Assembly: GCA_946408355.1 (NCBI GenBank)
Contig: CAMJRX010000005.1
Coordinates: 11,568-75,567, forward strand
Reading direction: 5' to 3'
Source: an uncultured Selenomonadales bacterium
GTDB taxonomy: Bacteria; Bacillota; Negativicutes; Selenomonadales; Selenomonadaceae
Length of the DNA: 64,000 nt
The notes beneath the pieces are model-generated. The model was not told the DNA's origin. It saw only the letters and a list, made by a program, of their open reading frames with translations, and did not search any database. The position numbers were made by a program, and so were the translations under genes. Below are positions 26,565-43,576 of the stretch, one piece after another; position 1 is the stretch's first letter, and each line of letters begins with the position of its first letter.

Positions 26565-26593
26565 AAAAAAAAATCCCGCCGAACTTTTCGACG
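26565..26593 (-). terminator. Terminator of the seven-gene operon
   Basis: On the minus strand, CGUCGAA-AAG-UUCGGCG is followed by GGA and then a U-run of nine (plus-strand A-run 26565-26573). Confidence 0.5.
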
Positions 26594-26639
26594 AAATTTT
26601 AATCATTAGAATTCCAATTCGTTTATATAGGCTTTTGGT

Positions 26640-29282
26640 TCATTTAAATTTACCAGTAATACCTAGTACCTCAACACTGCGTTTATCTCCGCGCTCTGCT
26701 GCCGTCTGCCACCATTCTAGCGCACGAGAATAACATTTTAAATTCCAAAAAATTCCTCCGAGTTCGCTGACTGAATCATTATCGCCAAGACAACTTGCAT
26801 CTAGACAGCTTTCAATCGCCGCGTGAATATTTTTCAGCGTGCCTAAACCGTTCTGGTACATGTACGCCAAATATTTAATAGATTCGACATGCCCCATTGC
26901 CGCCGCACGAGAAAAACTATTCAAAGCATTTGCGTATTTCTTTTTGTTAAAAGCCGTCTTGCCTAAAGAGAAATCATCATTTGCAGTTGAATGTTTACGC
27001 GGCTTGCCAATTTTAGGAGGCAAAAATTTTTCCGCTGATAAATTATTTTGGGCATCATTATCCAAAGTTATATCGAGCAACTGATTTTTTCTTTCGAGCA
27101 TATCATCTAAAAAATTATCCGTAGAATTTTCCGAACTAAAAACTTTACTGCTTTGTTTAGGGCAAATTAATCGCCAATTATTATAAAAATTTTTCAATGC
27201 AGAGCTTATTTTTTCCATAACAACAAAATCTTGATTCAAGAAGTCAATTTTATTGTAAATATCCTCTGCATGTTGACGAAAAATATTCAAGCAAGATTCG
27301 CGCTGATTCCGGCAAAGTGTCGATACCTGCGTAAAATATTCAATCGTTGAGGCGAAAAACTTTTGTCGCAAATTTTTTTCTAGCGCGTTGATTTTATCTT
27401 TAAAAATTTCCTCTAAATGCTGTCGTAATTCTCTGCGAAATGTTCCTGCCAAATAAAAATTTTCAAGCAACTGTTTGCGATTCGCTTTGAAGAAATGCCA
27501 ATCTCCCTCTACTTCCTGCGTACAAAGGATTCGCGTACAACGTTTAACGAGTTCCGACAATTTATCGCGTGAAAAACTTTCTGATATTCCCACGTCGAAG
27601 GGCAACATGTTAATTTTTATTTCCGGCAAATTTACACCTAAACGGGACGCACTTGAAAATGTAGAGCAAACACAATCGATAAATTCTTTTGCTTGCGTTT
27701 TATGCTCGTCAATAATTTTTTTTGTCAGATTGATTAATTGTTTTGTCTGCTCGTTGTATTCGCTTTGCAACTGATTTTCCACAGTGGCGACGGAATTTTT
27801 AAGCTCCGTAGAAATTTTCCCTTGATACAAAAGGGGCATTTTTTCTGCAGAAAAGTCCTCGCTAGCAATTAATTCATCAAAAATATTGCTAACGACCGAA
27901 TTAATCGCCTGAATAAAATTATTTATCGCGTTGCTTACGTCATATATGAGAGCTTTAGCAACTGCATTTCCGCTAATAGTTTTTTCTTGCATTGCGATTA
28001 ACAAGATTTTTTCGCGAAAAATTTCAGCTTGATGAGCGTCGACAGAAAGTTTTTTCGTTTGAATCAGTCGCATATTTTTTAAAGTATCGTCATCAATAAA
28101 CGCAACGGCGCGTTCAACTTGTCTTAATAATTTTTCTGTTGTCGACGAATTTTTTTTGAGCGATTGACGAAGATAATTTTCAAGATACGGCACGCCAGTT
28201 TTTTGTAGGAGCGATTTGCTTGACGGATTAGGCAACGCCTCAAAAAATTTTTCAAGGAAATTTGTCGTAAAAAATTCCTCGCGACCGGTTAAGCCAAGAG
28301 CCTCCGTGATTTCAGCGACAGTAAGCCATTCATCGCCGCTTGTATAGACCGTCAAAAAAACTTCGGGCGCGTCGAGGAAAAATATTGGCGCGTCGTTAAA
28401 TCCGTTTGCGTCCAGAATTTTTGCAAAGTCAAAAAAGATTTTCGCGGAATTTATCGCCACTTCTTGTTCACGCACGGCAGGACAAATCAACACAAAAATA
28501 ATTTTATTTTTATCCGGCGCATCGGCAACGGTTGCTAAAAAATTTTCCGTCCGTGCAAAGTCATTGTTCAAAGCATTAACAGCGAAGACGCAAGCATTAC
28601 AATTCGGCAAATTTTTAGCGACTTCAGCGTCAGATAAAATTTCCGTATCAAAATTCAGCCGCTCAAAAATTTTCGCTAAATGCTCGTGTTCGCCTGTAAG
28701 GATTAGTTTTATTGGCTTGTTGAAACTTTGCAAATATTTTTCGAGTTTCTCCGTTGCCGATAAAAATTCTTTAACGTAAGAAATATTTTCCTGCAATTTT
28801 AATTCGTCTGTTTTATCCTGTAAATTTTTCACGCCGTCAAGTTCTTTAAGAAGGTTAGTTGCATTGTCCATTAACTTTTGCTCAACAGCGATTGCTGAAA
28901 ATTCTTCCTCTGAACAAATTTCAAGCGGCACTTGCAGAAATGAACATTGCCGTTTAACCGCGTTCGCCACGTCAATAAAACCTTGCGGCACTACTAAAAA
29001 ATTTTTCCCCGTCGCCATAAAGTTTTCGTCATATGAAATAGCGTCTAACGCGGCGGATAAAGTTTCAACCTCAAATTCCCCCGACGCAGAAATTAATTTC
29101 GCCGCGCAAGGAAATTTAATCTCTTGAGCAACGCGGGCAGAAATTTCCGCGTCAAAATCTGGTAACAGATAAATTTTATTCGGATTGGCGTTAATGTATG
29201 CAAGTATTTCAGCTTTGACTTCGCGCAAAAATTCTTCCGGAACGGCGACGCATTTTTTATTGCTCCAAGCCAAAAGATTCAT
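26640..29282 (-). CDS. Operon gene G: large protein with C-terminal Sel1/TPR-like repeats
   Basis: 880 aa. C-terminal AAAMGHVESIKYLAYMYQNGLGTLKN.. and ..WWQTAAERGD are Sel1-type repeats. The ATG overlaps the stop of gene F (ATGA). Confidence 0.75.
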   Translation of the reverse strand: MNLLAWSNKKCVAVPEEFLREVKAEILAYINANPNKIYLLPDFDAEISARVAQEIKFPCAAKLISASGEFEVETLSAALDAISYDENFMATGKNFLVVPQGFIDVANAVKRQCSFLQVPLEICSEEEFSAIAVEQKLMDNATNLLKELDGVKNLQDKTDELKLQENISYVKEFLSATEKLEKYLQSFNKPIKLILTGEHEHLAKIFERLNFDTEILSDAEVAKNLPNCNACVFAVNALNNDFARTENFLATVADAPDKNKIIFVLICPAVREQEVAINSAKIFFDFAKILDANGFNDAPIFFLDAPEVFLTVYTSGDEWLTVAEITEALGLTGREEFFTTNFLEKFFEALPNPSSKSLLQKTGVPYLENYLRQSLKKNSSTTEKLLRQVERAVAFIDDDTLKNMRLIQTKKLSVDAHQAEIFREKILLIAMQEKTISGNAVAKALIYDVSNAINNFIQAINSVVSNIFDELIASEDFSAEKMPLLYQGKISTELKNSVATVENQLQSEYNEQTKQLINLTKKIIDEHKTQAKEFIDCVCSTFSSASRLGVNLPEIKINMLPFDVGISESFSRDKLSELVKRCTRILCTQEVEGDWHFFKANRKQLLENFYLAGTFRRELRQHLEEIFKDKINALEKNLRQKFFASTIEYFTQVSTLCRNQRESCLNIFRQHAEDIYNKIDFLNQDFVVMEKISSALKNFYNNWRLICPKQSSKVFSSENSTDNFLDDMLERKNQLLDITLDNDAQNNLSAEKFLPPKIGKPRKHSTANDDFSLGKTAFNKKKYANALNSFSRAAAMGHVESIKYLAYMYQNGLGTLKNIHAAIESCLDASCLGDNDSVSELGGIFWNLKCYSRALEWWQTAAERGDKRSVEVLGITGKFK

Positions 29283-31942
29283 GCTACTCTCTCCAGCTTA
29301 TCGACGACTTTACGGACGCTCTCGACGATATTTTTCTTAGTTTGATTTTCAAGATTCCTTTGGTCAAGCCCTCTGAACTCGTCCTCTTTTACCTTGCGAA
29401 TATTATCGGTTATCCACTTGTCGAAAAGTTTTGCGCCGTCGGAAGTTTCCTCGTCCTTGCGAATTATGTTTATATTTTTCGTCATAACGGAAACAAACGC
29501 TTGCTCCAGCCCGATTGCGTAGATAATCGCCTCAAGCGTAAATTGCCGCAAGATTTCAATGTCCTCGTTCAATACACGCAACATATCGTCTTCGTTAGAA
29601 ATTTGCATTTGCCGACTTAACTCGTGCATTTTGCGCAATTTATCCACAGTCACCTTGCCCGAAAAACCGGATTTGTTCTTTGAATAAGTGTCGATTGTAT
29701 CGTTCAAGCGGTTAATGCGTTCATCTTTGCTTAAGTTCGACCAGTCGTTTTTATAAAAAGTCCCTTGAAGTTTACCTCTTAAATCGTTGGGAACTTCGTT
29801 AGCTTTAATGCCGGCGCGCAAAAGCATTTTCGCCCATTTACCCATAGGCAACAATTCAACGGCAAAAGATAGCCCCGCGCATATGGCGTCTTTATTGGCT
29901 TTGAAGAAATTTTCCAGACCGCTTTTAATCTCCGTGCTCGCCGAAACATTATCGTGCAAAAGAATTTTCGCAAAAAAATCTGTGTAACGATCTTCGCCGT
30001 CGCTGTGACTGACAACGGGGGAATTTTCATAGTAAGTCGCCAACGAAAGGAATTCCGGAAAAGATTTTTCACCTGTGACTTGCTGAAAACGTTCCGAAGA
30101 ACCGAACGGTCGCCAAATTAAAACTTCCAACAGCCGCGAAGTAAATCTTTCTACCAGCGAATTGAAGCGGCATTTATCAGCGTTCTTTATCCACAGCGAA
30201 TGGAATAATTCCGTAACGCTTTTGGTGAGTTCCTCTTTGTATTGAGAGTTATCCGGCATGCCCATTACTTCGAGGAATTTTGCAATGATTTTGTCGTAAA
30301 TTTCCTGTTCCTTTTTTTCGGTTGCTTCTGCCGTTCTTTGTACGAGGTTGCGCAAAAATTCCCGTTGCAATTCCTCGCGGAATTTTGCATCTATCGCGGT
30401 AAGCGGTAAAGGTCCACTGCCCTCAAGGTTTCCACTGCGTTTAATTTCCGCAAGCAGTTCAGAGTTCTCATCTTGATTGGGATAAAAAGTCTCGATATTA
30501 TCGCGAATCATTGAGCTAAAAGGTTCCTCTAAAAGGATTTGACTATTATACGATTTAGCAATGTCGTAAGCTTCTACTTTAAATTTTCTAAGATTCCGGA
30601 TTGCCTCTAAATAATATTCGCCGCCCGTCTCGATTGGTTGCCACTGCGCGGACTCATACTTCTTTAAAATGCCGTCCAAAAAATTTCTTGCGTCAGCGAT
30701 TGTGTTTTCTGCGCGGCGTTTCAAAACTTCAAAGCGGTCGTTGTTGTAATACTCCGTCATGCTCTCCCAAAGTTCAACGATACCATAAGCCATTCCCCAT
30801 GCGTCCATTTTGTCACGCGACGCCGTCGAACCTTTAAGTAATTCGTCGCTCGATTCAATGTCGTTACTTTCCAGATAAGCCTTCGCCGCCCCAACGAAAA
30901 TGTGATTGTCCTTTGCAATGCGATTTTCCACAGATTCTTTACGCAAAACGGCGGCATTTCTTTTAGCAATTTCAGAATTAGTTGCGCGGTCAATCTGATT
31001 ACCAAAAATAAATGCCTTGTCGCTCAACGGGATATTTTCTTCATCGCGACCGCTCCTCAATATGCCAAGTTGCGAACGATCCAAATTTGGATTTACGCCG
31101 ACATTAGTCACCAAAATTATCGCGTCCGCCTCGCGCAACATTTCCAAAGTCTGCTTTTCGTGCAATTCGGTTGGCGAATTAAAGCCTGGCACGTCGTAGA
31201 GAACGATATCTTTCATTGAGCCGAGATTCGCCGATTCAATTATGACTTTCTCAACGGCGTAAGGGTGCGCCGAACGTATCGCCGAACCGTCAGCATTTTT
31301 CCCAACTATGCCCGTTATAAATGTTTTGAATTCTTTGCTTTCGAGGTCGTCGCCGAAAAATTCTTGAGCCTTTTGACCGAGCAACCCGCGAATTATATTC
31401 CTGTCTTTCAACATAGTTTTAATATCTTCGGCGGTTTTGGTGTTATGCTTTTCGTACAAGTCGGGATTTTTATCCGCCATAGACTCCCACCACCTGCTGA
31501 AGGTAGACAAATCCAGCGTTTCAAAGTCAGCAGTTTGCGGATATTGAAGAACGTTTTTAAGCGTATCGGCGAAATTATTTTTGAATTGCTCCCTGTTGTA
31601 GAAAAAAATTTTACCGCAATCCTCGTTGCCCGCGCAGATTTTTGTAGTCGTGTAAGTGCAACGTTCCGTATACTCCGGCAAAATATTTCTTTTGAGAAGG
31701 GCATTACCGAGCGTACTTTTGCCCGCCTTCTCCAAACCGACGACAGCCACAGTAAATTCTCGCGTGCGCAACTTATTTAAAACTTTTTGATTGCGTTTTC
31801 TCAAGCGTTCCAATTCGATGCGCTCTTCGCCGAAGGGAATAACCATGCCGTTGGGGTCTTTTTGAATTATCTCATCAAAAATCCCGTCGGTTTCGTCCAA
31901 CTTCGTGATAAATTTTTGTTGCTCTTCGCTCAATGTACTCAA
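29279..31942 (-). CDS. Operon gene F: dynamin-like GTPase
   Basis: G1 VVGLEKAGKST, G3 LYDVPG, G4-like FGNQID, followed by long helical regions. TTG start 8 nt after AGGAGG. Confidence 0.8.
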   Translation of the reverse strand: MSTLSEEQQKFITKLDETDGIFDEIIQKDPNGMVIPFGEERIELERLRKRNQKVLNKLRTREFTVAVVGLEKAGKSTLGNALLKRNILPEYTERCTYTTTKICAGNEDCGKIFFYNREQFKNNFADTLKNVLQYPQTADFETLDLSTFSRWWESMADKNPDLYEKHNTKTAEDIKTMLKDRNIIRGLLGQKAQEFFGDDLESKEFKTFITGIVGKNADGSAIRSAHPYAVEKVIIESANLGSMKDIVLYDVPGFNSPTELHEKQTLEMLREADAIILVTNVGVNPNLDRSQLGILRSGRDEENIPLSDKAFIFGNQIDRATNSEIAKRNAAVLRKESVENRIAKDNHIFVGAAKAYLESNDIESSDELLKGSTASRDKMDAWGMAYGIVELWESMTEYYNNDRFEVLKRRAENTIADARNFLDGILKKYESAQWQPIETGGEYYLEAIRNLRKFKVEAYDIAKSYNSQILLEEPFSSMIRDNIETFYPNQDENSELLAEIKRSGNLEGSGPLPLTAIDAKFREELQREFLRNLVQRTAEATEKKEQEIYDKIIAKFLEVMGMPDNSQYKEELTKSVTELFHSLWIKNADKCRFNSLVERFTSRLLEVLIWRPFGSSERFQQVTGEKSFPEFLSLATYYENSPVVSHSDGEDRYTDFFAKILLHDNVSASTEIKSGLENFFKANKDAICAGLSFAVELLPMGKWAKMLLRAGIKANEVPNDLRGKLQGTFYKNDWSNLSKDERINRLNDTIDTYSKNKSGFSGKVTVDKLRKMHELSRQMQISNEDDMLRVLNEDIEILRQFTLEAIIYAIGLEQAFVSVMTKNINIIRKDEETSDGAKLFDKWITDNIRKVKEDEFRGLDQRNLENQTKKNIVESVRKVVDKLERVA

Positions 31943-31956
31943 GCCGATTACCTCCT

Positions 31957-32562
31957 TTAATTTGTATTATGTTTTTGACTTAATTCACGCCACGCCTCAG
32001 CAATATCTACGGAAGTTGCCGAATTTTTTTTACGGGCGGGCGACGGCGCAAATTTTTCTGGTTTAGGCGATTTAGAATTTAGATTATAATTTATCGGTAG
32101 AATTTTTTGCTTTTCTATTGAAGGATACGGCTTGTCGAGGGTGCCGATTAAAAATCTTTGCCCGCCTTCCGTCTTAACGCGGAGAATAGTGCTGTCGAGT
32201 GGTAATTTCAATTTCGACTGGAGCTGGCGGTCTGTAAACGAAAAAAATTTTTCTATATCCTCGTTCGTCCAAGTCGTCGGTGATACGGTTTGAACGTTGG
32301 CTGATTTCCCTGCGATGAAAAATTTTTCGACGTTAAAACCTTCGCGCCAAATAACACAAATATCTGTTGAATCTTCGGAGGTATGTCCGGTTTCTTGCTC
32401 CCATTGCCGCCAATAGTCTGCGGCGTTTGTGCCGTTTAAGTTATAAGTTTCGCCGCCGTGCAAGCGCAAAACAATAAAATTTTCGCGCTCAAAAGAATAA
32501 GTCTTAACAATTTGTTCGTCGAGACATTCGATTAAGTATTTGTAAATCGTCAAAGCCTTCAC
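31957..32562 (-). CDS. Operon gene E: hypothetical protein (201 aa)
   Basis: The GTG start overlaps the stop of gene D (GTGA). I recognise no domain. Confidence 0.6.
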   Translation of the reverse strand: MKALTIYKYLIECLDEQIVKTYSFERENFIVLRLHGGETYNLNGTNAADYWRQWEQETGHTSEDSTDICVIWREGFNVEKFFIAGKSANVQTVSPTTWTNEDIEKFFSFTDRQLQSKLKLPLDSTILRVKTEGGQRFLIGTLDKPYPSIEKQKILPINYNLNSKSPKPEKFAPSPARKKNSATSVDIAEAWRELSQKHNTN

Positions 32563-32963
32563 CTACCTTTTGTTTTTTTCTGAAGAAATTTTTGGTGCAA
32601 TTCGGCTTTCTTTTTTGCGAACGAGGATTTTCTTTCATAAAGATTTGTTTCAAGTACCATTTGTTCAGCTAAGATTCGCCGTGATTTTTCTTTTTGTTCC
32701 GCGAGGATTTTTTCGCCCTCTTTTGTCAAGCCGTCGGGGAAAGGAATTACGTCTAACTTTGTATCCGTCGGCGTCTTCAATGCTAAAAAGTCACGTTGAA
32801 TATTTTGCCGTTCCTGTTCAACTTCTTGACTGTCACGTTTTATTTTAGTTTCGAGGACGCTTATTTTTTTATCAAATTTTTTGACCGGCTCTTGGGATTC
32901 TCTCTCGAGAAATTGCATTGAGATAACTTTTTGCTGAATTTCTTTAAACTTGCCGCCGTTCAT
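32559..32963 (-). CDS. Operon gene D: highly charged coiled-coil protein (134 aa)
   Basis: The ATG overlaps the stop of gene C (ATGA). Lys/Glu/Gln-rich, heptad-like sequence. Confidence 0.6.
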   Translation of the reverse strand: MNGGKFKEIQQKVISMQFLERESQEPVKKFDKKISVLETKIKRDSQEVEQERQNIQRDFLALKTPTDTKLDVIPFPDGLTKEGEKILAEQKEKSRRILAEQMVLETNLYERKSSFAKKKAELHQKFLQKKTKGR

Positions 32964-33922
32964 GACGTAGCCTCAACTTTTGACGTATCTTTAAAGTCAA
33001 CGTCGTCCAAAATTTTTTCCGCGTCTTCGGGAAGTTCGCCATTCTGTCGTGCCTGCTGAAATTCCGCGCCGTATTCTTTTTGCAAATCATCTTTATAAAC
33101 GGACGCCAAAACTTTATCGTCGCTGTTAGAAACTTTGCGCATTTCGTTTAGCCGCGTAAGTAAATCCAGCTCGCTTTTTTCCGGAAAATAAAACTTCAAC
33201 GAATCCAAAAGCGCGGCGGTTATACGTTCCAATTCACCGGCGGGCAATGTTCCTTTTAAATATTCGCTGATGTTCAAATTTTTATAACCCAGCTCGTCGA
33301 ACGCCCGAATGAACGCTTGCACTTCCTTAACTTCCATTGCAGTGCGACCAATTTCAATCAGCGTCGTTTTCGGAATGCGCAAGCCAAATTTTTCTTCAAG
33401 CGCACTAACTTCCGCCTGCATACCTAAAACAGAATACATGCCAATATTTTTTTGCAGTTGAAGTGTATCGATTTCCTCTGCAGGAATTTGTTCCTTCAAA
33501 TAGGCGTAATACTCTTTAAACGACTTAAAATCATCGCGTTTTTTCCAGTCTTCGTGCTTGTCGGCTTCCTCTAAGCGATAACCGATTTCCTCTGGCTTTT
33601 CGTTTTTCTCGACGACTTCATTTTCCTCAGCGATTTTAGAAATTACTTTAACCACCAACTTAACGAGCAAATCAACGATTATCGGACCCAATATCGGTCC
33701 CAGAGGTCCTGTCATAATTCCGCTTAAACCTTTAAGAAGTCCAAACGCTTTACCCGCAATCGAACCTAAAAAACCAGAAATCGCTTTGCTCGCCAAATTT
33801 CCAATCGTGCTTATCGCTCCGGTTACTGCCGACGCAATGCCGCTTGCAATCCTGCCAATAGCACTTCCAACGCTACTAATAGCACTTCCGATGGCACTTC
33901 CAATAGAACTAAAAAATCCCAT
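32960..33922 (-). CDS. Operon gene C: protein with an N-terminal Gly/Ser/Ala/Ile-rich glycine-zipper membrane region and an acidic C-terminal domain
   Basis: The first roughly 100 aa read GFFSSIGSAIGSAISSVGSAIGRIASGIASAVTGAISTIGNLASKAISGFLGSIAGKAFGLLKGLSGIMTGPLGPILGPIIV. The ATG lies 1 nt after the stop of gene B, and its SD AAAGGAGGG sits inside the end of gene B. Confidence 0.7.
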   Translation of the reverse strand: MGFFSSIGSAIGSAISSVGSAIGRIASGIASAVTGAISTIGNLASKAISGFLGSIAGKAFGLLKGLSGIMTGPLGPILGPIIVDLLVKLVVKVISKIAEENEVVEKNEKPEEIGYRLEEADKHEDWKKRDDFKSFKEYYAYLKEQIPAEEIDTLQLQKNIGMYSVLGMQAEVSALEEKFGLRIPKTTLIEIGRTAMEVKEVQAFIRAFDELGYKNLNISEYLKGTLPAGELERITAALLDSLKFYFPEKSELDLLTRLNEMRKVSNSDDKVLASVYKDDLQKEYGAEFQQARQNGELPEDAEKILDDVDFKDTSKVEATS

Positions 33923-33923
33923 G

Positions 33924-36900
33924 CTAATTCCCTCCTTTTAAACGCAGAACACCCATAATTTCGCGCTGAATTTTTAAGAGTACCGAATCAAAATTATCAT
34001 CATCGGCTGATAAAATTTCTTCGACGACGCCGCAAAACTTTTCAAAAATTTTCTGATCATACGGCTCGTACAGATTGCAGAAAAGCCACGTTTGCCACAC
34101 ATCGCGCCCAACAGTTTTTTCAACGTGATTAACTTCGCGTTGGAAAGTTTTTAGCGCGTTTTCTGTTGTGTCATTGTCGAACAGGCTACGATATTTTTTC
34201 TTAAGCGAATAGCCGCCGCGCATAATCCAAAGATATTGGCGGATAATTTCTTTAGAAATTTCTGCAGGGAAATGTTCAATGCCGCGCAGAACGCCGCTTG
34301 CAATAACTTTCGGCTCGGTGTAATAGTTTTCGGCAATGTCGCGAATTTCTTCCGGCTCAATTTCCCGTTGCTCCGTCGTAGATACTTCCTGTTTAATTTT
34401 GACTTGCATAGCTTTAACTTGTCCTTGCGAAAAAATAATCGCCCTGCCCGTCGGAAGTTTAGACAAAAAAGTTTTCTGTTCGTCGGAAAGGGCAATCGTA
34501 TCGCCTATTGCGTCTTTATCGTCGCGGGCAAATAATTTGTGCACAATTTTTGTATTCGTATTCTTTAAAACTTCGGGCGTCATCTTGTCGGGAATTTGAT
34601 CGACAATAATCAACGACTCGCCATATTTGCGAACCTCCGCTAACATGTCGGAAAAAACTTCGACGCCCTGTTTTTTATTCATGCTATCGCCTGGAACGTA
34701 TCGGCTTAACAATCTGTGCGCCTCTTCTATCAACGTAATGTGTTGGAAGGCGGGATTTTTTCTGTGACGATATTGCACCGCTTGCAAAAGATTTGTAAGT
34801 ATAAATCCCATGAGCAAAGATTTTTCCGAGCCGTTTTTAATCTCTTCGAGTTCGATAACAACTTTGCGCTCAACTAAATCAAAAAAATTTATCGAACGCG
34901 CCGTATCAAACATCATGCCTTTCGCGCCGACTAAAAGGCTTTCTATTCGCGCCTTCAATGAACCCATATATTCATCTTGCAGACGTTCGCCGAAGCCCTC
35001 TTCCTTTGTAACTTTTTTTACTGCCTCCCAAAAATCAGACATTGTCGGGAAAGGATAAACTCCCGCGTCGAAAGGATTTTGCGGTTCGTCGTTGCCGTTA
35101 ATTGTTGGTCGCCATTCGTTTGTGCGAATATCCCAGCCCTTTTCCTCATAAGCGCGATAAACTCCCGTCTCCAAAATTTGCGGGATCGCCGCCTCCATGT
35201 CAAAGGACGCCTCTAACGTCGCCTTAATCATGTCAGCGCGTCCGGTTATCGCCTCGCCAGGAAATAATTCAAATGGATTCAAGAAAAACGGCGCGATATT
35301 TTGTTTGCCCGGCGTAAAGAAAATTAATTCGGGGCAACGTTCTTTCAATATGCGATATTCAGTCTTCGCCGGCTCAATTACCAAAAACGGCAACCCGCTG
35401 TTAATCAAAATGTTTTGGCAAGTCGTAGTTTTGCCGCTCCCAGTCACGCCCGTAATAAAAGTATGTTTGTTGAGGTCGCGCCTGTCCAAAGACACGGGCA
35501 AATTGCGTTCGGTGCCGTCTTGTACTAAATTTCCGAGCGGCAATTTATATTCGTCAGCGACGGGCTTAAAGTTCAAACCAAATTCAACTTCCTCGCGCAA
35601 GGCAAGACCAGGAATTTCTTTTTTGGGCAACGCCGCGATAACGCTCAATTCCTCTACCGAAAACCAATTCCCGCACCAGCCAACGCGATTTCCTGTCCAA
35701 CTCGAAAGTATTGCCGAATATTTTTTTTCGTTAGGCTCAAGGAACGAGGGAATTTGCATATTTTGCAGAGCGTGCAAACAACCAGCCTCCGACTTTGAAA
35801 ACTCGTGGAAACTCAACGGTCGCCGATTGCCTTTCGTGCCACTGTAAAGTGAAATTGCTGTATTGGCGAGGCGGTGGAGCATTGCCGGTTGCGCCGCGAA
35901 AAGATACGCACAACATAAAAAAAGCCCCTTGCCTCTGCCACAATCGAGGCGCGGAAATAAAATTTCGTCGATATATTTAATCCACTGCGCGGCGGTTTTA
36001 GTGTCAACTTCCATTTGCTCAACTTGCGCCGTGTTGCTTGACGTGGATTCTGTGGTCGCGTTCGTTTTATTTTCTATTGTCGTCGACGAAATATTTTCCG
36101 ACGAACTTTGACTTGCGCTTTCGCTGTTCTGCGTACTTTTGCTCGTGTTGTCAGTCGAGGAAACTTGATAGCCGAAAACATACGACGTTTGATTTTGTGC
36201 GGAATAATTTGCGCCTGAAGAAATTCCGCCGCTTTGCTCCTTTGATTTGTTTTCGTCCTCCGACTTCTTGACGACGTTATTATTATCTTTTTCCGTAACA
36301 AGATTTTTATTGTTGGCGTTACGTTCACTGCTATTAGAACTGCTACTTATGCTGTGCTGTCTACCGGAAGTTTGCCCCGCCGTTGCCTGTTGCTGATTGG
36401 AAATATTTTTTTGCTCGCTTTGACTTGTCGTTTCGATTTTGTTGCTTGAAGAATTTTTACTTTCCTGCGTCGATTCGGTTATTTGCGTGCCGTTGCTGGT
36501 GTTTACACTTGAATTATTAGCCGTTCCCGTTGACTTCGTGCGCTGAAAAGAATGACGAGCAATCGGCGACAGCGCGTCGGCAATCTCAATCAGCACATCT
36601 TCCAATTTGTTAACTTCCGCGCCAACCAACGGACGAGCTATAACCATAAATCCGAATTCATCGCCCGCCATAACGTTAATCAATCTGTCCACGCCTTGAA
36701 AATTTTCGTTGTCTTTCTCGGTGCCTGGTACGCCCGTCAAAATCCCCGCGCAGGAAATATTTTTCAAGCGTTTTATAACTTCGCGTTTATCTGCGTTAGT
36801 CAGCTCGCGAATTTGACAGCCGCGAAAATTTCCTTGAATACTCGGTTTAAGCAAGTCGCCGCCGATTGTAGGCGCAGAAAGATTTTCCGCTTTTTCGTGT

Positions 36901-37205
36901 GCAAAATCTTTCGCTATCCCAAAATAAAATTTAACGTCCTGCCCACTGCCCAATATCAAATAAATAAAACTCATGCCCTCAAGGTCGCGAAAAGTGCTCA
37001 AAACATTTTCCATAGCCTCGCGACGCGGTGCCTTCTCCTCAAATGTCAATTCCTCAATCTGAAAGAAACAACATTCGCGCAAAATAATTTCTCGCTCCGT
37101 GCCTAGCCATTCGCGCTCACGAATAAAAAAATTTCCCTTCGCAACGTCAGAAAGCCCGCTAACTACCGCTTGACCATTTTTTATTGCCTCGTCTATCTCC
37201 CGCAT
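33924..37205 (-). CDS. Operon gene B: HerA/FtsK-superfamily P-loop ATPase with a long low-complexity insert
   Basis: Walker A HTFITGVTGSGKTT (about 35425-35455). Walker B-like HITLIEEAHRLL. Ser/Asn/Thr/Gln-rich segment at about 36020-36540. SD AAGGGGA before the ATG. Confidence 0.8.
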   Translation of the reverse strand: MREIDEAIKNGQAVVSGLSDVAKGNFFIREREWLGTEREIILRECCFFQIEELTFEEKAPRREAMENVLSTFRDLEGMSFIYLILGSGQDVKFYFGIAKDFAHEKAENLSAPTIGGDLLKPSIQGNFRGCQIRELTNADKREVIKRLKNISCAGILTGVPGTEKDNENFQGVDRLINVMAGDEFGFMVIARPLVGAEVNKLEDVLIEIADALSPIARHSFQRTKSTGTANNSSVNTSNGTQITESTQESKNSSSNKIETTSQSEQKNISNQQQATAGQTSGRQHSISSSSNSSERNANNKNLVTEKDNNNVVKKSEDENKSKEQSGGISSGANYSAQNQTSYVFGYQVSSTDNTSKSTQNSESASQSSSENISSTTIENKTNATTESTSSNTAQVEQMEVDTKTAAQWIKYIDEILFPRLDCGRGKGLFLCCAYLFAAQPAMLHRLANTAISLYSGTKGNRRPLSFHEFSKSEAGCLHALQNMQIPSFLEPNEKKYSAILSSWTGNRVGWCGNWFSVEELSVIAALPKKEIPGLALREEVEFGLNFKPVADEYKLPLGNLVQDGTERNLPVSLDRRDLNKHTFITGVTGSGKTTTCQNILINSGLPFLVIEPAKTEYRILKERCPELIFFTPGKQNIAPFFLNPFELFPGEAITGRADMIKATLEASFDMEAAIPQILETGVYRAYEEKGWDIRTNEWRPTINGNDEPQNPFDAGVYPFPTMSDFWEAVKKVTKEEGFGERLQDEYMGSLKARIESLLVGAKGMMFDTARSINFFDLVERKVVIELEEIKNGSEKSLLMGFILTNLLQAVQYRHRKNPAFQHITLIEEAHRLLSRYVPGDSMNKKQGVEVFSDMLAEVRKYGESLIIVDQIPDKMTPEVLKNTNTKIVHKLFARDDKDAIGDTIALSDEQKTFLSKLPTGRAIIFSQGQVKAMQVKIKQEVSTTEQREIEPEEIRDIAENYYTEPKVIASGVLRGIEHFPAEISKEIIRQYLWIMRGGYSLKKKYRSLFDNDTTENALKTFQREVNHVEKTVGRDVWQTWLFCNLYEPYDQKIFEKFCGVVEEILSADDDNFDSVLLKIQREIMGVLRLKGGN

Positions 37206-37216
37206 TGTTTTTCCCC

Positions 37217-37380
37217 TTTAAATTCGATTTCATCGGGCGAAATTAAATAAAAACACTCGCGCAAAATAATTTCTCGTTCGCGAACAAAAAATTTTATCTT
37301 TAAATTCGACTTCATAAGGCAAATTAAAGAAATATCACTCGCGCAAAATAATTTCTCGCTCGCGAACAAAAAATTTTATC
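37217..37380. repeat. Two tandem 82-bp repeat units in the gene A - gene B intergenic region
   Basis: Units 37217-37298 and 37299-37380 are roughly 88-90% identical by eye. They contain copies of sequence from both flanking genes; see findings. Confidence 0.85.
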
Positions 37381-37408
37381 TTTATGTCTACTGCATTGTT
37401 TTTAAACT

Positions 37409-40405
37409 TTAATTAGGAAACTTTTTTGTATAAATTTTCCCGTCAAAGTCTTCGCTCTCAAAATCTTCCGCTCTTCCAACCGCATATTCGATTTCATCGG
37501 GCGAAATTTTCCTTATATATACAGAAATATCCCTGTCGCGGCTGACTTCAGCCTTGTCGAGGCTACAACGAACTACGTTTACTTCATTTCTTTTTAAATT
37601 TCCGCTAATCGCTACTGCCTCTTCCGTAAAATAAATCTCAAACTTCCGCGCATTGGCATAAGTAAACCTCGTCCACTGATTATACGGTATGTCAAGCTTA
37701 ATTTTGACTTGAAAACAGTCGTTAGCGTCAATTTGCCCCAAATAAAACTTAAACGGAGCTTCTTCTTCCGCGCCACCGATAATTTCAACATCACTGCCGC
37801 CCTCGCGACTGCGCAAAAGCCCAAATGCTACTCCAGTTTTGCCCGTGCGAAGTCTTTCGTAGTTTTGATTCGTTTCTTGCTCGGTTTCGTCGGCGTCATG
37901 TACTTCTGCGGCTCTTTTTTCTGCCTCGTCGGGATCAAATCCAAGAGGCATGTGCAATACAAAAATATTTGAGACGTTTTTATCCTCTCCGGTGTTGCGC
38001 GAAATGATTTCCTCAAGTTTTTGTTCGTTCTCACGGATTTTTTCCTCAAAAAGATTCCGCACGATTGTAGATTTACAAGAATTGCCCGCTAAAAGAATGT
38101 GAATCGGTAAAACTTCAGGCTTTTTAAACGCGCCAAGCAAAGCCTCAAAGAAATTATCGACGCCACGACGAATTCTTTCTTTTAAACACTCTTCAAGCCG
38201 TTGTCTGTTCAATTTTAACTCGACAGGAATAATTTTGTCTTCCGTTTGAGAATAAAGCTTTAATTTTTGCGGCGTATCAAAAAGTTCGTTGCTCTCTTCG
38301 ATATTTTCTTCCCAAAACGGTCTCAAAAGCTCCGCAATACGTTTTCTATTGACATAAGCCTCTTTTGTCTTGAGAATTATCGTTTGTGCACCGTCGACAG
38401 CAATACATTCATAAGGCAACGCAAAGGGAATTTGTTTTTCGCGCATAGTCGACAGATTATTTTTATAAACTTCGTAAGCGATAAGGTTTAAAAGGTTTTC
38501 GCCGCCTAAATATGGGTCGCCGCGTCCAGTATTTGTATATTGTTCTATCACAAACTTGGAAAATCCGTCTACAGGAACACTTTCGACGCCAAAATCAAAA
38601 TCAGTGGTGCCTCCGCCGAAATCGAACACCGCATAAGCAGTTTTTTCGCCAGCTTTAGGTTGTAATTTCAATTCGCCAAGCGCACAACTCGCATAAGCAG
38701 CCGGTTCACTCGCTCCAGCGTAAATAATAAAGTCTTCCATTAACTCTTCGTCGTTTAAAATCGAGGGAGGTAGCGATTTTTTAATTCCGCGCTCAAAACT
38801 TTGCAGAATTTTTTCGCGAACAGCCTTTTCATACGTCACCGGAAACGAAAACATATACTCAAGGCAAATTCCATTGTGCATATTGTTAATATAAAGCCCT
38901 AAATAATAAGCGTAAAGCTCAATCGGGTCAAAATCATCATCTTCAAGTTGCAAATACGGATTAAGCTCAACTAAATTCTTTTTTCTGTCCTGCAAATACA
39001 TGCGCAAATCTTTATCGTTAGCCCATTGTTTTAATTCGCCGAATACCGAATAAAAAACCGAACTATCTATGCTGGTATCCTTTTCCGCGTCATTTAAAAC
39101 TGCGGCGGCGGTGTGCGAAAACGTTGCATCGTCCCATTGCGTGAAAGGTCGACCGTCACGAGATAAATATGCCGCCTTAAATGATTCATAATCGCGCAAT
39201 TCTATGACTGTCGGGTTCTCATAATCTTTTTTTTCGGGTGCTTTGGCATAATTGCCCTCGCCAATTCGCAAAAGTTTTTCGTCAGTGCCAACTTGACGCA
39301 CTACAACCGTTGCTTTCGTGCCAAAATCAATCGCAACTATGCCGTCGGTAACGTCCATTTGCGGAGGACGTCCAAAAAATGGCTCGTTTTCCGGTAATTC
39401 TATAATTTCTGCGTCTTGTGGCGGTTCCTCGAAAAGTTCCCAATGTCCGATTTTCGGATCTGTCAAAATTTTAACGTCGTAAGGATGAATATTCGCCCGA
39501 ATGTAATCGCATTGACAAAGCTCCTCGCGAACTTGATTAATCGGATTTTGTACGTCATCTTTTTTGGCTTTAACGTTCGGCAAATCATTTTTACTTTTGC
39601 CAAAACCTTTTGCGACAAGATTTTCAAAATCAATTATGCCGCGTTCAGCCTCGCGATTAAATAAATTAAAATCAAGCGTCAACTTCCGCGTAATCATTCG
39701 CACGTAGCGTTGAATATGCGGGAAAATGTTCATCAAAAAAATATAAGCCTTCTTAGCTTGCGGCGATAAACCTTCAGGAACCAATTCATTCGTCAGCCAA
39801 GCATTTACTGTTTTGCCGTATTGCGCGTTTGTAGAATTTACTCCGGTCAATCTGAAAATCGGCACCATTGTAATTTTGTCGGAGTCCGAATAAATATTTA
39901 TTTGCCCGCTGGAGGTTACACAATAAGATTTACTGCCTTTCCAACCCGAAACTAAAATAATTTTCTTGAGGGCCGTAGGAAAATATTTAAAATTGCCGTC
40001 CTCGTCCAAATATGGATTTTCCATACCGACGATAAAACTTTTCAAGCATTCTTCAGGCGTCATGGGCGTAAAAGTAAAGCCTTCAAACGACCAACCCGAA
40101 TAATTGTAAAGCGGACGACCAACCGTCGCAAAACTCGGAAGTTCAACCGCCTCGAAACGCGGAAAAATACCACCTGTCGCTCTGTCGAACCAAACTTTTT
40201 TATTTTCCATCATCACGTAAGGCGCATCTTTGAATTTTTCAAGCTCGTCGATTGCAAACGTAACGTAAGCTTCAAATTCGTCCAGAGAAATGCTTTTTTT
40301 CGCAGAAGTTTTTGGCGTGCTGTCAATATTTTTTAAATTGCCCCGCAAAGCTACTTCATAACAAGGGCACGTGCGGTCTTTTGCTCTAGTGTCTATTATT
40401 CCCAT
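37409..40405 (-). CDS. Operon gene A: giant Hsp70/actin-fold (DnaK-like NBD) ATPase with novel N- and C-terminal regions
   Basis: DGIVAIDFGTKATVV (phosphate-1, about 39318-39347). AVFDFGGGTTDFDF (phosphate-2, about 38603-38632). HILLAGNSCKSTIV (adenosine motif). ATG 40405 follows AAGGAGAG; the track start at 40453 lacks an SD. Confidence 0.8.
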   Translation of the reverse strand: MGIIDTRAKDRTCPCYEVALRGNLKNIDSTPKTSAKKSISLDEFEAYVTFAIDELEKFKDAPYVMMENKKVWFDRATGGIFPRFEAVELPSFATVGRPLYNYSGWSFEGFTFTPMTPEECLKSFIVGMENPYLDEDGNFKYFPTALKKIILVSGWKGSKSYCVTSSGQINIYSDSDKITMVPIFRLTGVNSTNAQYGKTVNAWLTNELVPEGLSPQAKKAYIFLMNIFPHIQRYVRMITRKLTLDFNLFNREAERGIIDFENLVAKGFGKSKNDLPNVKAKKDDVQNPINQVREELCQCDYIRANIHPYDVKILTDPKIGHWELFEEPPQDAEIIELPENEPFFGRPPQMDVTDGIVAIDFGTKATVVVRQVGTDEKLLRIGEGNYAKAPEKKDYENPTVIELRDYESFKAAYLSRDGRPFTQWDDATFSHTAAAVLNDAEKDTSIDSSVFYSVFGELKQWANDKDLRMYLQDRKKNLVELNPYLQLEDDDFDPIELYAYYLGLYINNMHNGICLEYMFSFPVTYEKAVREKILQSFERGIKKSLPPSILNDEELMEDFIIYAGASEPAAYASCALGELKLQPKAGEKTAYAVFDFGGGTTDFDFGVESVPVDGFSKFVIEQYTNTGRGDPYLGGENLLNLIAYEVYKNNLSTMREKQIPFALPYECIAVDGAQTIILKTKEAYVNRKRIAELLRPFWEENIEESNELFDTPQKLKLYSQTEDKIIPVELKLNRQRLEECLKERIRRGVDNFFEALLGAFKKPEVLPIHILLAGNSCKSTIVRNLFEEKIRENEQKLEEIISRNTGEDKNVSNIFVLHMPLGFDPDEAEKRAAEVHDADETEQETNQNYERLRTGKTGVAFGLLRSREGGSDVEIIGGAEEEAPFKFYLGQIDANDCFQVKIKLDIPYNQWTRFTYANARKFEIYFTEEAVAISGNLKRNEVNVVRCSLDKAEVSRDRDISVYIRKISPDEIEYAVGRAEDFESEDFDGKIYTKKFPN

Positions 40406-40442: not shown

Positions 40443-40471
40443 AGTATACGCAAATACTATCCATAAGTCAA
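40443..40471 (-). promoter_or_regulatory. Promoter of the seven-gene operon
   Basis: On the minus strand: TTGACT (40471-40466), a 17-nt spacer, TATACT (40448-40443). Confidence 0.5.
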
Positions 40472-40546: not shown

Positions 40547-42046
40547 ATGAGGTGGAAAAAATTTTTTCAACGCGGCTTAATTATCATTTCAGCCGTATTT
40601 TTTTTGCTCGGTGCTAGTTTTGTCGGCGCAGCTGTCCAAATTTTCGACGGAAGCGGTCAATATATCATGAGCGACGACGGTAATCACGAATTCGGCAAAA
40701 AAAGAGCGCAACAACGCGCCGAACGCGACGCACAAAAGAAAGCTGGCATTTATTTAACAACTTTTTCGCGTTCAGTCAACGCAATTCTAACCGATGACGA
40801 AATTTCTGCCGTCACGAATAATATTATTAAAGTTTCTGACGTAAAAATTGTTCCGGTGCCATTTGAGACGCAGGGCGAAGCCGGTCTCATGTACAAAGCC
40901 ACTTTAAAGGCGACAATCGACACTGACGGGATTTTTTCTTGGATAAATCGCAACGACAACGAAAAAATTACTATCATTAAACAAAATAATAATTTGCAAG
41001 CAGAAATTCAAAAAAATGACGCCCTCGACGAGAATTTAAAGGAAAAATACAAGGGCGCAACCACTCAAGCGGAGAAAAATACCCTTCGCAAGCAAATGGA
41101 AGAATCAGACCGCGATTTTTTAGCTAATCAGAAACTCGAAGAGGGAAATAAACTTTATTACGCCAAAAATTATGACGGCGCGGCAAAATTTTATGGTGAA
41201 GCTCTCGGATTAAAGCCGAATTGGGATTGGGCGTACAATAATCGCGGTGCCGCTTATAACGAAATCGGAAAATATCAGCTGGCAATTCAAGATTTAAATA
41301 AAGCAATCGAATTAAATCCGAATAATTCGGAGGTTTATAATAATCTCGGAAATTCTTATCTCTATTTGCAACAATATCAGCAGGCAATTTCTTACTACAA
41401 CAAGGCAATTCAGCTAAATTCTAACGATTCAAAGCTTTATAATAATCGTGGCGAGGCTTATCGTTACTTAAATCAATTCGATTCGGCAATTTCTGATTAC
41501 AATAATGCGCTTAAAATTAATCCGAATTTTGCAGAGGCGTATAATAATCGCGGAGTTGCTTACATGGACGGTTTTAAACAGTATGATAGGGCAATTTCCG
41601 ATTATAACAAGGCGATTCAACTAAATTCTAATTACGCCGAAGCTTATTACAATCGTGGAAATGCTTATATTAACCAAAATCAATTAGATTCGGCGATTTC
41701 TGATTACAATAATGCGCTTAAACTCAATCCGAATTTTTATCAAGCCTATTATAATCTCGGAATTATTTACTACAACCAGAAAAAATACGAATTAGCGATT
41801 CAAAATTACTCTAAAGCCATTGAATTTAATCCGAATTTTTTCGCGGCGTATCTAAATCGCGGACTTAATTACGCTTTGACTGGAAATTTGCAATATGCGA
41901 TTGCCGACGCGAACAAAGCCATTCAACTTAATCCGAATTCTGGCGAAAGTTATTATTTGCGTGGAGTCTTTTATCAGGAACTCGGCGACATGCAAAAAGC
42001 TCAAGACGATTTCGCAAAAGCTAAACAGCTTGGCTACAACGGTTGA
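40547..42046 (+). CDS. Secreted or lipoprotein-like TPR-repeat protein
   Basis: N-terminal signal-like hydrophobic segment. At least 8 consecutive TPR units (..AYNNRG.AY......AI.DYNKAI.LNPN..). Confidence 0.8.
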   Translation: MRWKKFFQRGLIIISAVFFLLGASFVGAAVQIFDGSGQYIMSDDGNHEFGKKRAQQRAERDAQKKAGIYLTTFSRSVNAILTDDEISAVTNNIIKVSDVKIVPVPFETQGEAGLMYKATLKATIDTDGIFSWINRNDNEKITIIKQNNNLQAEIQKNDALDENLKEKYKGATTQAEKNTLRKQMEESDRDFLANQKLEEGNKLYYAKNYDGAAKFYGEALGLKPNWDWAYNNRGAAYNEIGKYQLAIQDLNKAIELNPNNSEVYNNLGNSYLYLQQYQQAISYYNKAIQLNSNDSKLYNNRGEAYRYLNQFDSAISDYNNALKINPNFAEAYNNRGVAYMDGFKQYDRAISDYNKAIQLNSNYAEAYYNRGNAYINQNQLDSAISDYNNALKLNPNFYQAYYNLGIIYYNQKKYELAIQNYSKAIEFNPNFFAAYLNRGLNYALTGNLQYAIADANKAIQLNPNSGESYYLRGVFYQELGDMQKAQDDFAKAKQLGYNG

Positions 42047-42186: not shown

Positions 42187-42410
42187 CCGTTTTGGACTTC
42201 AAAAACGCCACTCAAACCCCTTTTCAAGCTCCAAAATCACTTTCAAACAAAAATTTTAGCCTTTGCAGTCGATTTCAAGACTTCAAAGCCGTTTCAAATA
42301 AAAATTTCAACCTACGAAGTTGATTTCAAAACTTCAAACACGTTTCAAACAAAAATTTTGCTCGCGTAGTCGATTTCAAGGCTCCAAAACCGTTTCAAGC
42401 AACAAAAAAA
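42187..42410. repeat. Non-coding tandem array: about 4.5 copies of a roughly 50-bp unit rich in TTTCAA
   Basis: Unit starts at about 42218, 42268, 42319 and 42369 (periods 50-51 bp). Consensus is roughly gtcgatttcaag(a/g)cttcaaa(g/a)ccgtttcaaacaaaaatttt plus 9-11 variable nt. Confidence 0.8.
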
Positions 42411-43322: not shown

Positions 43323-43353
43323 AAATTTTTCTCCTATCATTAATTTTTAATTG

Positions 43354-43387: not shown

Positions 43388-43576
43388 TTAACTTGCTACG
43401 TTCTGTTTTTGTTTACGGAGCCGCGCTGGTCTAAATTTTGATAATTCTTCCTTTGTCATGCGCGGTATATCGCTAAAATCTATGTCGTCGTCGGATTTTG
43501 GCTTATTTTCTTCTAACCTGCGAATTTGTTCTTCTGTCAACGGCGGCATTCCCTTATAAATTCGGATACTGCCCAT
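43388..43576 (-). CDS. brnA: BrnA-family antitoxin
   Basis: DDDIDFSDIPRMTKEEL..F is typical of BrnA. ATG 43576 lies 8 nt after GAGGAGGA. It overlaps the end of brnT. Confidence 0.75.
   Translation of the reverse strand: MGSIRIYKGMPPLTEEQIRRLEENKPKSDDDIDFSDIPRMTKEELSKFRPARLRKQKQNVAS

Follow-up and report, generated by a model that had tools for sequence, protein, structure and literature searches.

A HerA-centred gene cassette joined to a dynamin pair in a Selenomonadaceae operon: a candidate NTPase-driven conflict system

A stretch of 64,000 nucleotides (nt) from an uncultured bacterium of the Selenomonadaceae (contig CAMJRX010000005.1, positions 11,568 to 75,567; the whole stretch is hereafter called the window) carries seven adjacent genes, here named A to G, which bring together an Hsp70-like ATPase, a HerA-like ATPase, dynamin-like proteins and a membrane protein. 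One question then is whether such a set forms a single device and what such a device might be for. The initial annotation, made from the sequence alone, regarded the set as one unit and as a candidate undescribed conflict or defence system. The analysis described here divides the seven genes into two modules, namely a widespread cassette of the five genes A to E and a dynamin pair, F-G, which belongs to a subclade of Selenomonadaceae/Anaerovibrio. Tentatively, and with slightly less than even confidence, we consider the operon to be a composite conflict (anti-phage/anti-mobile-element) system driven by nucleoside triphosphatases (NTPases), in which the HerA-like protein B would deploy protein C as a membrane effector. 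What inclines us to this view is the presence of a B-C pair in a CoCoNuT-type locus, the links of the cassette to plasmids, integrases and relaxases, the WYL regulators and defence genes among its neighbours and the replacement of C by other putative effectors.

The two modules are apparent from the distribution of the genes, which were clustered in about 80 non-redundant loci encoding an A homologue. The order A-B-C-(D)-E is found in about 30 of 77 loci, most of them with one to three A paralogues, in Selenomonadaceae, Veillonella, Megasphaera, Phascolarctobacterium, Bacillales (Evansella, Neobacillus), Natroniella, Lachnospiraceae and Zetaproteobacteria, while in the Gammaproteobacteria a rearranged cassette is located on an Acinetobacter plasmid. 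The spread of A-E across Negativicutes, Bacilli, Clostridia, Zetaproteobacteria and Gammaproteobacteria is patchy, and such patchiness over distant phyla is typical of mobile cargo. Among species-representative genomes at least 450 places hold the core cassette, the carriers including cultured human oral and gut bacteria (Veillonella, Megasphaera), rumen Selenomonadaceae and soil Bacillaceae. The pair F-G follows E only in the window and in the loci L007, L009 (Anaerovibrio), L012 and L013. In the last two of these the F orthologue is broken, being fragmented in L012 (12266-14573) and interrupted by an internal stop in L013 (8157-10805), which reflects either decay of the dynamin module or an error of metagenome assembly. 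The single seven-gene unit originally proposed survives in part: A-E do recur together, and A and B, whose failure to co-occur elsewhere would by the terms of the initial annotation have told against the proposal, are found together, with C, in the loci counted above, but F-G are confined to a narrow subclade, F is joined to A and B in five loci only, and F-like genes are found elsewhere without A-E.

At the centre of the cassette stands B, the product of which comprises an N-terminal domain, a 190-residue segment rich in serine, threonine, asparagine and glutamine (S/T/N/Q) and a HerA-clade P-loop ATPase domain at residues ~553-940. PADLOC models matched B with mad8 at 5.6e-27 (a partial match, over the ATPase domain) and with several HerA models, down to 1.3e-17; NCBIfam returned partial CedD and HerA matches, and Pfam DUF87 scored 22.6 bits, slightly under its cut-off of 23.2. 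A profile of B searched against the PDB retrieved HerA structures only (4.6e-16 to 1e-8), and some of these, which the search output names HerA, helicase or ATP-binding protein, we take to be defence complexes. The Walker A motif GVTGSGKTT and the motif EEAH are invariant among the homologues, and as a P-loop ATPase with Walker A and Walker B motifs B belongs to the HerA/FtsK superfamily. The low-complexity segment (window positions 36006-36575, B residues ~211-400) is a general property of this group, since every B homologue, including the plasmid-borne and HNH-associated ones, possesses a segment of 100-190 residues with an S/T/N/Q/G content of 50-67%. B has no transmembrane segment, and a relaxed Pfam scan of its N-terminal half yielded nothing credible. 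The initial annotation had named B as HerA/FtsK-like, A as Hsp70-like, C as a glycine-zipper membrane protein and F as a dynamin-like GTPase, and these assignments stand, that of B on the evidence just given and the others on that which follows.

The surroundings of B homologues on plasmids were surveyed by tblastn of B against plasmid sequences, followed by annotation look-ups. On plasmid p1 of Photobacterium damselae (L088) the B and C homologues come directly after a set consisting of a superfamily 1 helicase (AAA_11/AAA_12), two unknown proteins and a DUF2357 (McrC N-terminal) protein, and Csm6 is close by. The helicase is of the CnuH type, and the B-C pair, present here without A, occupies the 3' end of a CoCoNuT-type locus; its B homologue shares 47% identity with B over the ATPase half and 33% in the N-terminal domain. 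The genes of an Acinetobacter piscicola plasmid are arranged as WYL-B-(78 amino acids)-C-(310 amino acids)-X-A-A-HEPN-dynamin fragment-integrase-HipA, in which X is a coiled-coil gene considered below. In Lactococcus cremoris pB26B (L090:293-9076) two dynamins come first, then two small paralogues, of which one has a C-terminal glycine zipper, and then a B-like ATPase with an HNH endonuclease and a 125-residue protein after it. An Exiguobacterium plasmid encodes a 658-residue protein and a B-like ATPase, and behind these an HNH endonuclease and a protein of the SMI1/KNR4 family. The gene after the B-like ATPase of Ruminococcus albus pRUMAL01 specifies a 515-residue protein with a C-terminal glycine zipper. 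Dynamins and Hsp70-like proteins thus recur as partners of B-like ATPases. The gene position after these ATPases is filled by a membrane protein or by an HNH nuclease, and therefore behaves as an effector slot. The exchange of C for HNH nucleases or for other glycine-zipper proteins in B-like loci lends some support to the earlier suggestion that the operon acts by abortive infection. The seven-gene set of pB26B is shared by near-identical conjugative dairy plasmids and attracts partial PADLOC matches only (LeoA, LeoBC and HerA); it is itself a candidate phage-resistance determinant of industrial strains.

In 29 loci the gene directly downstream of B is C. The N-terminus of its product is an amphipathic region in which small residues (G/S/A) recur with a four-residue periodicity, residues 1-100 containing 26 small-xxx-small pairs, and a hydrophobic segment at residues 69-99 is the sole window of transmembrane strength among the seven proteins. 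Beyond this region lies a conserved helical domain without a known relative in Pfam, and relaxed Pfam scans of this domain, of the N-terminal domain of A and of the N-terminal region of G gave nothing credible. In PHROGs, C matches hydrophobic stretches of tape-measure proteins. Members of the C family start almost invariably with MG, most continuing with F/W-x-S and many being Cys-rich N-terminally, and these features could point to a conserved signal for N-terminal processing or for membrane anchoring. The small proteins encoded next in the cassette, D and E, matched no family in Pfam, PADLOC, NCBIfam or relaxed Pfam scans, nor, for E, in PDB profile searches. The sequence of D is poorly conserved; a small open reading frame (95-199 amino acids) nevertheless occupies its position after C in most loci having a C homologue, although the Bacillales/Clostridia variants L075, L078, L079 and L083 lack it. 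E begins with a conserved globular domain of ~140 residues (with YWxWW, DICF and W98), which is followed by a linker rich in Pro and Lys and by a short tail, likewise conserved; it is present in 16 loci by sequence clustering and in further loci by position.

The product of A, which matched no model of Pfam, PADLOC or NCBIfam, is composed of a variable N-terminal domain (residues ~1-340), an Hsp70-type nucleotide-binding domain (~355-830) and a substrate-binding-like beta-sandwich domain (~870-998). A profile of 28 A sequences found the nucleotide-binding domain of DnaK in the PDB at 8.6e-6. The AlphaFold2 model (predicted local distance difference test, pLDDT, 78) contains a beta-rich C-terminal domain at 873-995, and the top Foldseek matches of this model are all full-length DnaK, Hsc70 and BiP structures, with E ~3e-15 over ~670-690 columns, viral Hsp70 homologues being matched too. 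Invariant across the 28 homologues are D360-F-G-T-K, E567-P, D595-F-G-G-G-T-T-D and G774-N-S, so that the actin-fold nucleotide-binding domain retains its phosphate-1, phosphate-2 and adenosine motifs; the beta-sandwich substrate-binding domain that follows is recognisable at the fold level only. To judge from these motifs, A is probably a catalytically competent Hsp70-like ATPase, but since the Pfam HSP70 model (PF00012) is unmatched at E<=0.01 it represents a highly divergent Hsp70 branch and not a canonical member. Among 1.84 billion cluster representatives searched, the A family amounted to 543 clusters (50% identity) at E<=1e-30, of which the majority match residues ~290-990 only, and the N-termini are therefore exchanged. 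Because this N-terminal domain is the least conserved portion of A, because most family members leave it unmatched and because several A paralogues occur per locus, it has the character of a sensor. As to a phage origin of A, 50,697 phage records contained 0 homologues.

A coiled-coil gene, X, precedes A in 47 of the about 80 loci and is missing from the window and from L007. The C-terminal segment of X aligns weakly with the beta-domain of E. coli GrpE (hhalign E 0.0034, probability 9.6%), and HMMER profiles of X, both full-length and restricted to the C-terminal 140 residues, returned from the PDB only coiled-coil or chance matches and no GrpE C-terminal domain. X is possibly GrpE-like, a suggestive resemblance that we treat as a lead and not as a finding. 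In Ureibacillus xyleni (L066:1869-9940) an Hsp70-VWA fusion (699 amino acids), a 1084-residue unknown protein and a DUF4280 protein, presumably PAAR-like, precede an X-A pair, which places the A family in yet another multi-gene setting.

The second module is made up of two dynamin-like proteins of different character. F matches Pfam Dynamin_N at 1.5e-14 (54.9 bits against a cut-off of 27), and its G-domain motifs are intact (G1 GLEKAGKST, G3 DVPG, G4 NQID), with GKS, DxPG and NxxD invariant in the alignment; in PADLOC it partially matches LeoBC (3.7e-11, model positions 55-160 of 601). G was known beforehand for its C-terminal Sel1 repeats, and these were recovered at residues ~770-880 by a profile search against the PDB (Sel1 proteins, 8.4e-16), being below cut-off in a single-sequence Pfam search. 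G is, however, not merely a Sel1 protein. Its first 700 residues are modelled by AlphaFold2 (pLDDT 74) as a bacterial dynamin-like protein, for which Foldseek returned BDLP 2j68 first (8e-6) and then IniA, SynDLP and Campylobacter DLP1/2, and PADLOC recorded a partial match to LeoBC (positions 255-442, 1.2e-5). The P-loop of G is degenerate (LTGEHEHLAK) in all five orthologues. We thus assign F to the bacterial dynamin-like proteins and G to the same group at the fold level, as a pseudo-enzyme; since the profile-profile comparison of G with F is weak (E 0.095), the assignment of G depends on structure prediction and Foldseek. This predicted fold is new relative to the initial annotation, and F-G form a heterotypic pair, in which an active dynamin GTPase is accompanied by a pseudo-GTPase with a Sel1 tail. 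The G family is narrow, with 17 clusters; F has 557 homologues, many of them solitary. The association of dynamins with the cassette is recurrent: a dynamin pair stands beside the B-like ATPase in Lactococcus and a dynamin fragment beside the cassette in Acinetobacter. In another locus (L093:8581-19342) a WYL-regulated operon encodes two dynamins, one of them F-like (45% identical), together with two paralogues of ~240 residues, of which one has a Gly-rich transmembrane segment, and a dynamin-Sel1 protein whose P-loop is intact, in the vicinity of MoxR-like AAA, PARG and PHP genes; it may be an independent dynamin-based system.

The seven genes are co-directional and tightly packed, as first described, and all are intact (Table 1). 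By their coordinates, B and C are separated by 1 nt and E and F by 14 nt, while C/D, D/E and F/G each overlap by 4 nt. The remaining junction, A/B, measures 203 nt and is filled by a tandem repeat, again as initially noted. The 82-nt repeat has no second copy elsewhere in the window; it can form a long hairpin (z = -2.8), and at gathering score no family of Rfam is matched. In L007, an 86%-identical relative, the repeat is absent and the A-B gap is 12 nt, and the repeat may be a recent insertion affecting the coupling of A and B. The ATG of gene A at 40405 is preceded by a AAAGGAGAG ribosome-binding site, and a database protein of 998 amino acids is 100% identical to the A product. The promoter and terminator earlier ascribed to the operon were found again, as consensus matches only: promoter-like sites show no enrichment in the region, and a single terminator-like site is present, after G. 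Across all seven genes the ratio of nonsynonymous to synonymous substitution rates (dN/dS) relative to L007 is 0.08-0.30, with gene D at 0.30; this purifying selection indicates that all seven are genuine, selected genes.

Table 1. Features of the operon and its surroundings, in window coordinates
Feature	Position	Strand	Description
Gene A	37409-40405	minus	998 aa (amino acids); Hsp70-like
Gene B	33924-37205	minus	1093 aa; HerA-clade P-loop ATPase
Gene C	32960-33922	minus	320 aa; glycine-zipper, putative membrane effector
Gene D	32559-32963	minus	134 aa; charged helical protein
Gene E	31957-32562	minus	201 aa; N-terminal globular domain
Gene F	29279-31942	minus	887 aa; TTG start; bacterial dynamin-like GTPase
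Gene G	26640-29282	minus	880 aa; predicted dynamin-like fold, degenerate P-loop, Sel1 repeats
Sigma-70-like promoter candidate	40443-40471	minus	TTGACT, 17 nt, TATACT; upstream of A; 10/12 matches
Intrinsic-terminator-like hairpin	26570-26600	minus	14 pairs (4 G-C), then TTTTT; downstream of G
Tandem duplication	37216-37384	not assigned	82 nt x 2.1 copies, 87-90% identical; fills A-B gap
BrnT-family ribonuclease toxin gene	43554-43856	minus	Pfam 6e-24

How such a set of proteins might operate can be outlined as follows. B would be a hexameric HerA-clade motor and the hub of the system, with C filling the effector slot immediately downstream, and the glycine-zipper/hydrophobic N-terminus of C would insert in the cytoplasmic membrane and permeabilise it. 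A would serve as a sensor or gate, its substrate-binding domain holding C (or B) inactive; alternatively, its variable N-terminal domain would recognise a foreign or misfolded protein. The ATP cycle of A, working with X in most relatives, would license B to release C, and abortive infection would ensue, with D and E acting as small adaptors or inhibitors. Other bacterial dynamins delay lysis. The pair F-G, recruited in one Selenomonadaceae/Anaerovibrio lineage, might likewise act at the membrane, by organising or limiting the lesion or by delaying lysis. A bolder and rather unlikely version of this scheme would have the divergent Hsp70 cycle of A, equipped with interchangeable N-terminal sensors and in most relatives with the possibly GrpE-like X as partner, trigger immunity when A binds a phage protein or is itself titrated away, the HerA-like motor deploy a glycine-zipper toxin and, in one lineage, the dynamin pair shape or contain the lesion. 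The operon would then be the first chaperone-gated abortive-infection system, and the B-like '1000-aa HerA' a general hub through which diverse NTPase sensors, such as Hsp70-like proteins, dynamins and CoCoNuT, are joined to swappable effectors, whether membrane proteins or HNH nucleases.

The neighbourhoods of the cassette speak in part for a role in conflict. Among 131 immediate neighbours of 27 cassettes, taken as raw counts without a background rate, are four to five WYL regulators, HTH control proteins, AbiLi/AAA_21, AriA, NERD-UvrD, nSTAND3, CARF-HEPN, GajB and transposases, and one locus, L005, adjoins a relaxase, a resolvase and MmeI. A body of observations nonetheless weighs against this interpretation. 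Many of the same 131 neighbours are housekeeping genes (tRNA synthetases, metabolic genes). In the window itself propionate-pathway genes (CoA transferase, methylmalonyl-CoA epimerase-like, carboxyltransferase) lie on one side of the operon, and on the other are a TPR gene (40547-42046, plus strand), an open reading frame, the BrnT toxin gene and, by Pfam, glycosyltransferases, so that the flanks are mostly housekeeping. Among the proteins, C has no Pfam match and no detectable likeness to a known pore-former, and its toxicity is an assumption; no DnaJ match, and hence no J-domain partner, was found in any of the seven by Pfam or relaxed Pfam scans; PADLOC yields for the seven only partial matches to mad8/HerA (B) and LeoBC (F, G) and nothing for A, C, D and E; and, X being absent, the Hsp70 cycle would be incomplete in the window. 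Much of the A family is found without B and C, lone X-A pairs occur in many genomes, Bacillaceae included, and F-like genes often stand alone amid housekeeping genes. The branch of A in oral Selenomonas looks vertically inherited, which suggests a non-defence role, and, like the lone X-A pairs, is compatible with a cellular chaperone function. In this branch (oral Selenomonas/Centipeda, L035-L055) A is N-truncated (885-910 amino acids), lacks X, B and C, and stands in conserved synteny beside a ComFB-like gene.

Of the genes near the operon, that for BrnT alone is clearly of a toxin-antitoxin or defence type. The initial annotation had likened the setting to a defence island; after Pfam annotation of the flanks, which contain, apart from BrnT, a TPR protein, glycosyltransferases and propionate-pathway enzymes, we have abandoned the idea of a strong defence-island setting. 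Between the TPR gene and the open reading frame beyond it (298 amino acids, unannotated; 42444-43340, minus strand) lies a tandem array of 51 nt x 3.6 copies (42222-42402).

Several of these points have led us to consider membrane or envelope homeostasis unconnected with invaders, an improbable explanation in our estimation, according to which the Hsp70-like chaperone and the HerA-like motor would insert, extract or assemble C while the dynamins remodel or repair the membrane under stress. Flanks of housekeeping genes, seen in the window as well as in several further loci, would be in keeping with such a function, as would the conserved synteny of the oral Selenomonas A homologues and the solitary F-like dynamins amid housekeeping genes; hydrophobic segments are normal clients of Hsp70, and membrane repair and fission are known roles of bacterial dynamins such as DynA and IniA. 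It agrees poorly with a spread that is patchy across phyla, with cassettes on plasmids and beside integrases and relaxases, with the frequency of WYL regulators and defence neighbours and with the occurrence of B-C within a CoCoNuT-type restriction locus, and the HNH nucleases that take the position of C in B-like loci fit an effector slot better than a structural membrane client. The mobile associations could also be accommodated, though we think this very doubtful, by a translocation or secretion apparatus in which B, as a relative of FtsK, VirB4 and CedD, would move C (as a bacteriocin-like toxin) or DNA, with A as the substrate chaperone, in inter-bacterial competition or in the transfer of mobile elements. 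B does show partial matches to CedD, TrwB, FtsK and a terminase, mobilisable or conjugative plasmids carry its homologues, C is similar at its N-terminus to bacteriocins and tape-measure proteins, and in L066 the presumably PAAR-like DUF4280 gene adjoins an X-A pair. Conjugation or secretion has been raised as a possible role of the related EccE3-HerA ATPase of CoCoNuT systems (PMC11090510). Yet B is devoid of transmembrane segments and its best solved relatives are HerA proteins and not VirB4 or EssC; general Pfam, PADLOC and NCBIfam scans of the seven proteins recognised no channel, relaxase, WXG100-type substrate or exporter, and there is no evident immunity gene for a secreted toxin.

Finally, there is a slim chance that the operon is no single functional unit at all, and that A-E and F-G, possibly also A and B-E, are independent and simply adjacent and co-oriented. 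Most cassettes lack F-G, F-like operons stand alone, B-C occurs without A in L088 and X-A without B-C elsewhere, F is fragmented or interrupted in L012 and L013, and in the window A is split from B by a gap of 203 bp with the window-specific, hairpin-forming 82-nt repeat. On the other hand, E and F are only 14 nt apart, F and G overlap by 4 nt and the one terminator-like site comes after G; A-E and F-G are kept together among relatives in which A is 53-86% identical; dynamins are seen independently beside B-like ATPases on the Lactococcus and Acinetobacter plasmids; and all seven genes are under purifying selection.

Were the operon indeed a conflict system of the kind we propose, an Hsp70-type chaperone would join the known immune sensors, three classes of NTPase would be linked in one pathway and a function would be found for the unexplained EccE3-HerA extension of CoCoNuT; the recurrent combination of a B-like ATPase with a swappable downstream gene would then offer a simple genomic rule by which to find further effectors. 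Should it be a membrane-homeostasis machine instead, it would constitute a new client-specific Hsp70 system in bacteria. The cassette is widespread, mechanistically unusual and present in cultured strains.

The relation of the operon to known systems remains to be considered. Pfam, NCBIfam and PADLOC models, together with literature searches, provided no description of the A-B-C-D-E cassette or of its union with dynamins, but only thematic relatives; PHROGs gave generic matches only, and four of the five core proteins are unmatched by curated families. The statement of the initial annotation that no described system unites all these components thus withstood a PADLOC check, in which no named system covered the set, as well as the literature searches. 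The affinities of B bring to mind Sir2-HerA and DUF4297-HerA, for B matches HerA models and in both cases the ATPase gene adjoins a putative effector gene. Neither effector domain is found, however, in C, D, E or any other product of the operon; B has roughly double the length, with an extra N-terminal domain and the S/T/N/Q-rich segment; and here the putative effector is a membrane protein, with an Hsp70-like ATPase and two small proteins as obligatory neighbours. As for MADS (mad1-mad8), B alone matches mad8 and the other six proteins match no mad model. In Eleos (LeoA + LeoBC) the likeness is confined to LeoBC, which matches F in its G-domain region only and G only in a segment of the stalk, LeoA being unmatched. 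With the bacterial dynamin pairs (Nostoc BDLP, Campylobacter DLP1/DLP2, Bacillus DynA) F-G share the dynamin assignments and the overlapping genes, but G differs in having lost the P-loop and gained Sel1 repeats, and F-G are joined to an Hsp70-like/HerA-like cassette.

The involvement of an Hsp70-like protein recalls the DO-GTPase/GAP1 systems (Kaur et al., eLife 2020, PMC7159879), in which paired GTPases are associated with HSP70 and GrpE and which have been interpreted as NTP-dependent thresholding conflict systems. Paired GTPases, an Hsp70 and a GrpE-type factor would also be the elements common to both, although the GrpE-like nature of X is only suggestive and X is not in the window. The defining components of the DO-GTPase/GAP1 systems are GTPases of a distinct TRAFAC family and GAP1, with DnaJ/FNIII partners (PMC7159879). 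In the present operon the GTPases are of the dynamin family, which for F is established by Pfam and argues against membership, a HerA-like ATPase is central, and no DnaJ or FNIII partner was matched by Pfam, PADLOC or NCBIfam among the seven proteins. In comparison with the DnaK-GrpE machine itself, A has the same fold (a nucleotide-binding and a beta substrate-binding domain) and conserved ATPase motifs, and X is a coiled coil; A differs by leaving the Pfam HSP70 model unmatched and by its 340-residue N-terminal extension.

A further connection is to an extension of the CoCoNuT systems, EccE3-HerA, an FtsK/HerA-superfamily ATPase with an insertion of variable length and a small helical partner, which is occasionally placed at the 3' end (PMC11090510). 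For such CoCoNuT-associated relatives of B an EccE-like fold has been reported. The layout of the B-C pair in L088 fits this description; we infer the identity of L088 with the published family from its architecture, since the L088 accessions were not found in the supplements of PMC11090510. Type III-A CoCoNuT systems also possess an Hsp70-like unit for nucleotide and substrate binding (PMC11090510). A kinship between A and the Hsp70-like part of the L088 DUF2357 protein was considered and rejected, the A-family hidden Markov model giving no match at E<=10. The window shares the B-C module but is no CoCoNuT, for in its operon Pfam, PADLOC and NCBIfam recognised neither the McrB-like GTPase (CnuB) and the DUF2357 McrC-like protein (CnuC) expected of Type III-A nor a helicase or a VWA protein. 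Conversely, D, E, X, the A paralogues and the dynamin pair fall outside the published description. The term 'undescribed' used in the initial annotation accordingly holds for the A-E cassette, of which we found no description, and not for the B-C pair, whose homologues fit the published extension. We would place the operon among the NTPase-regulated, HerA-centred conflict systems, should its role in conflict be borne out; one part of it, B-C, had been noted before, and its seven-gene unity is lineage-specific.

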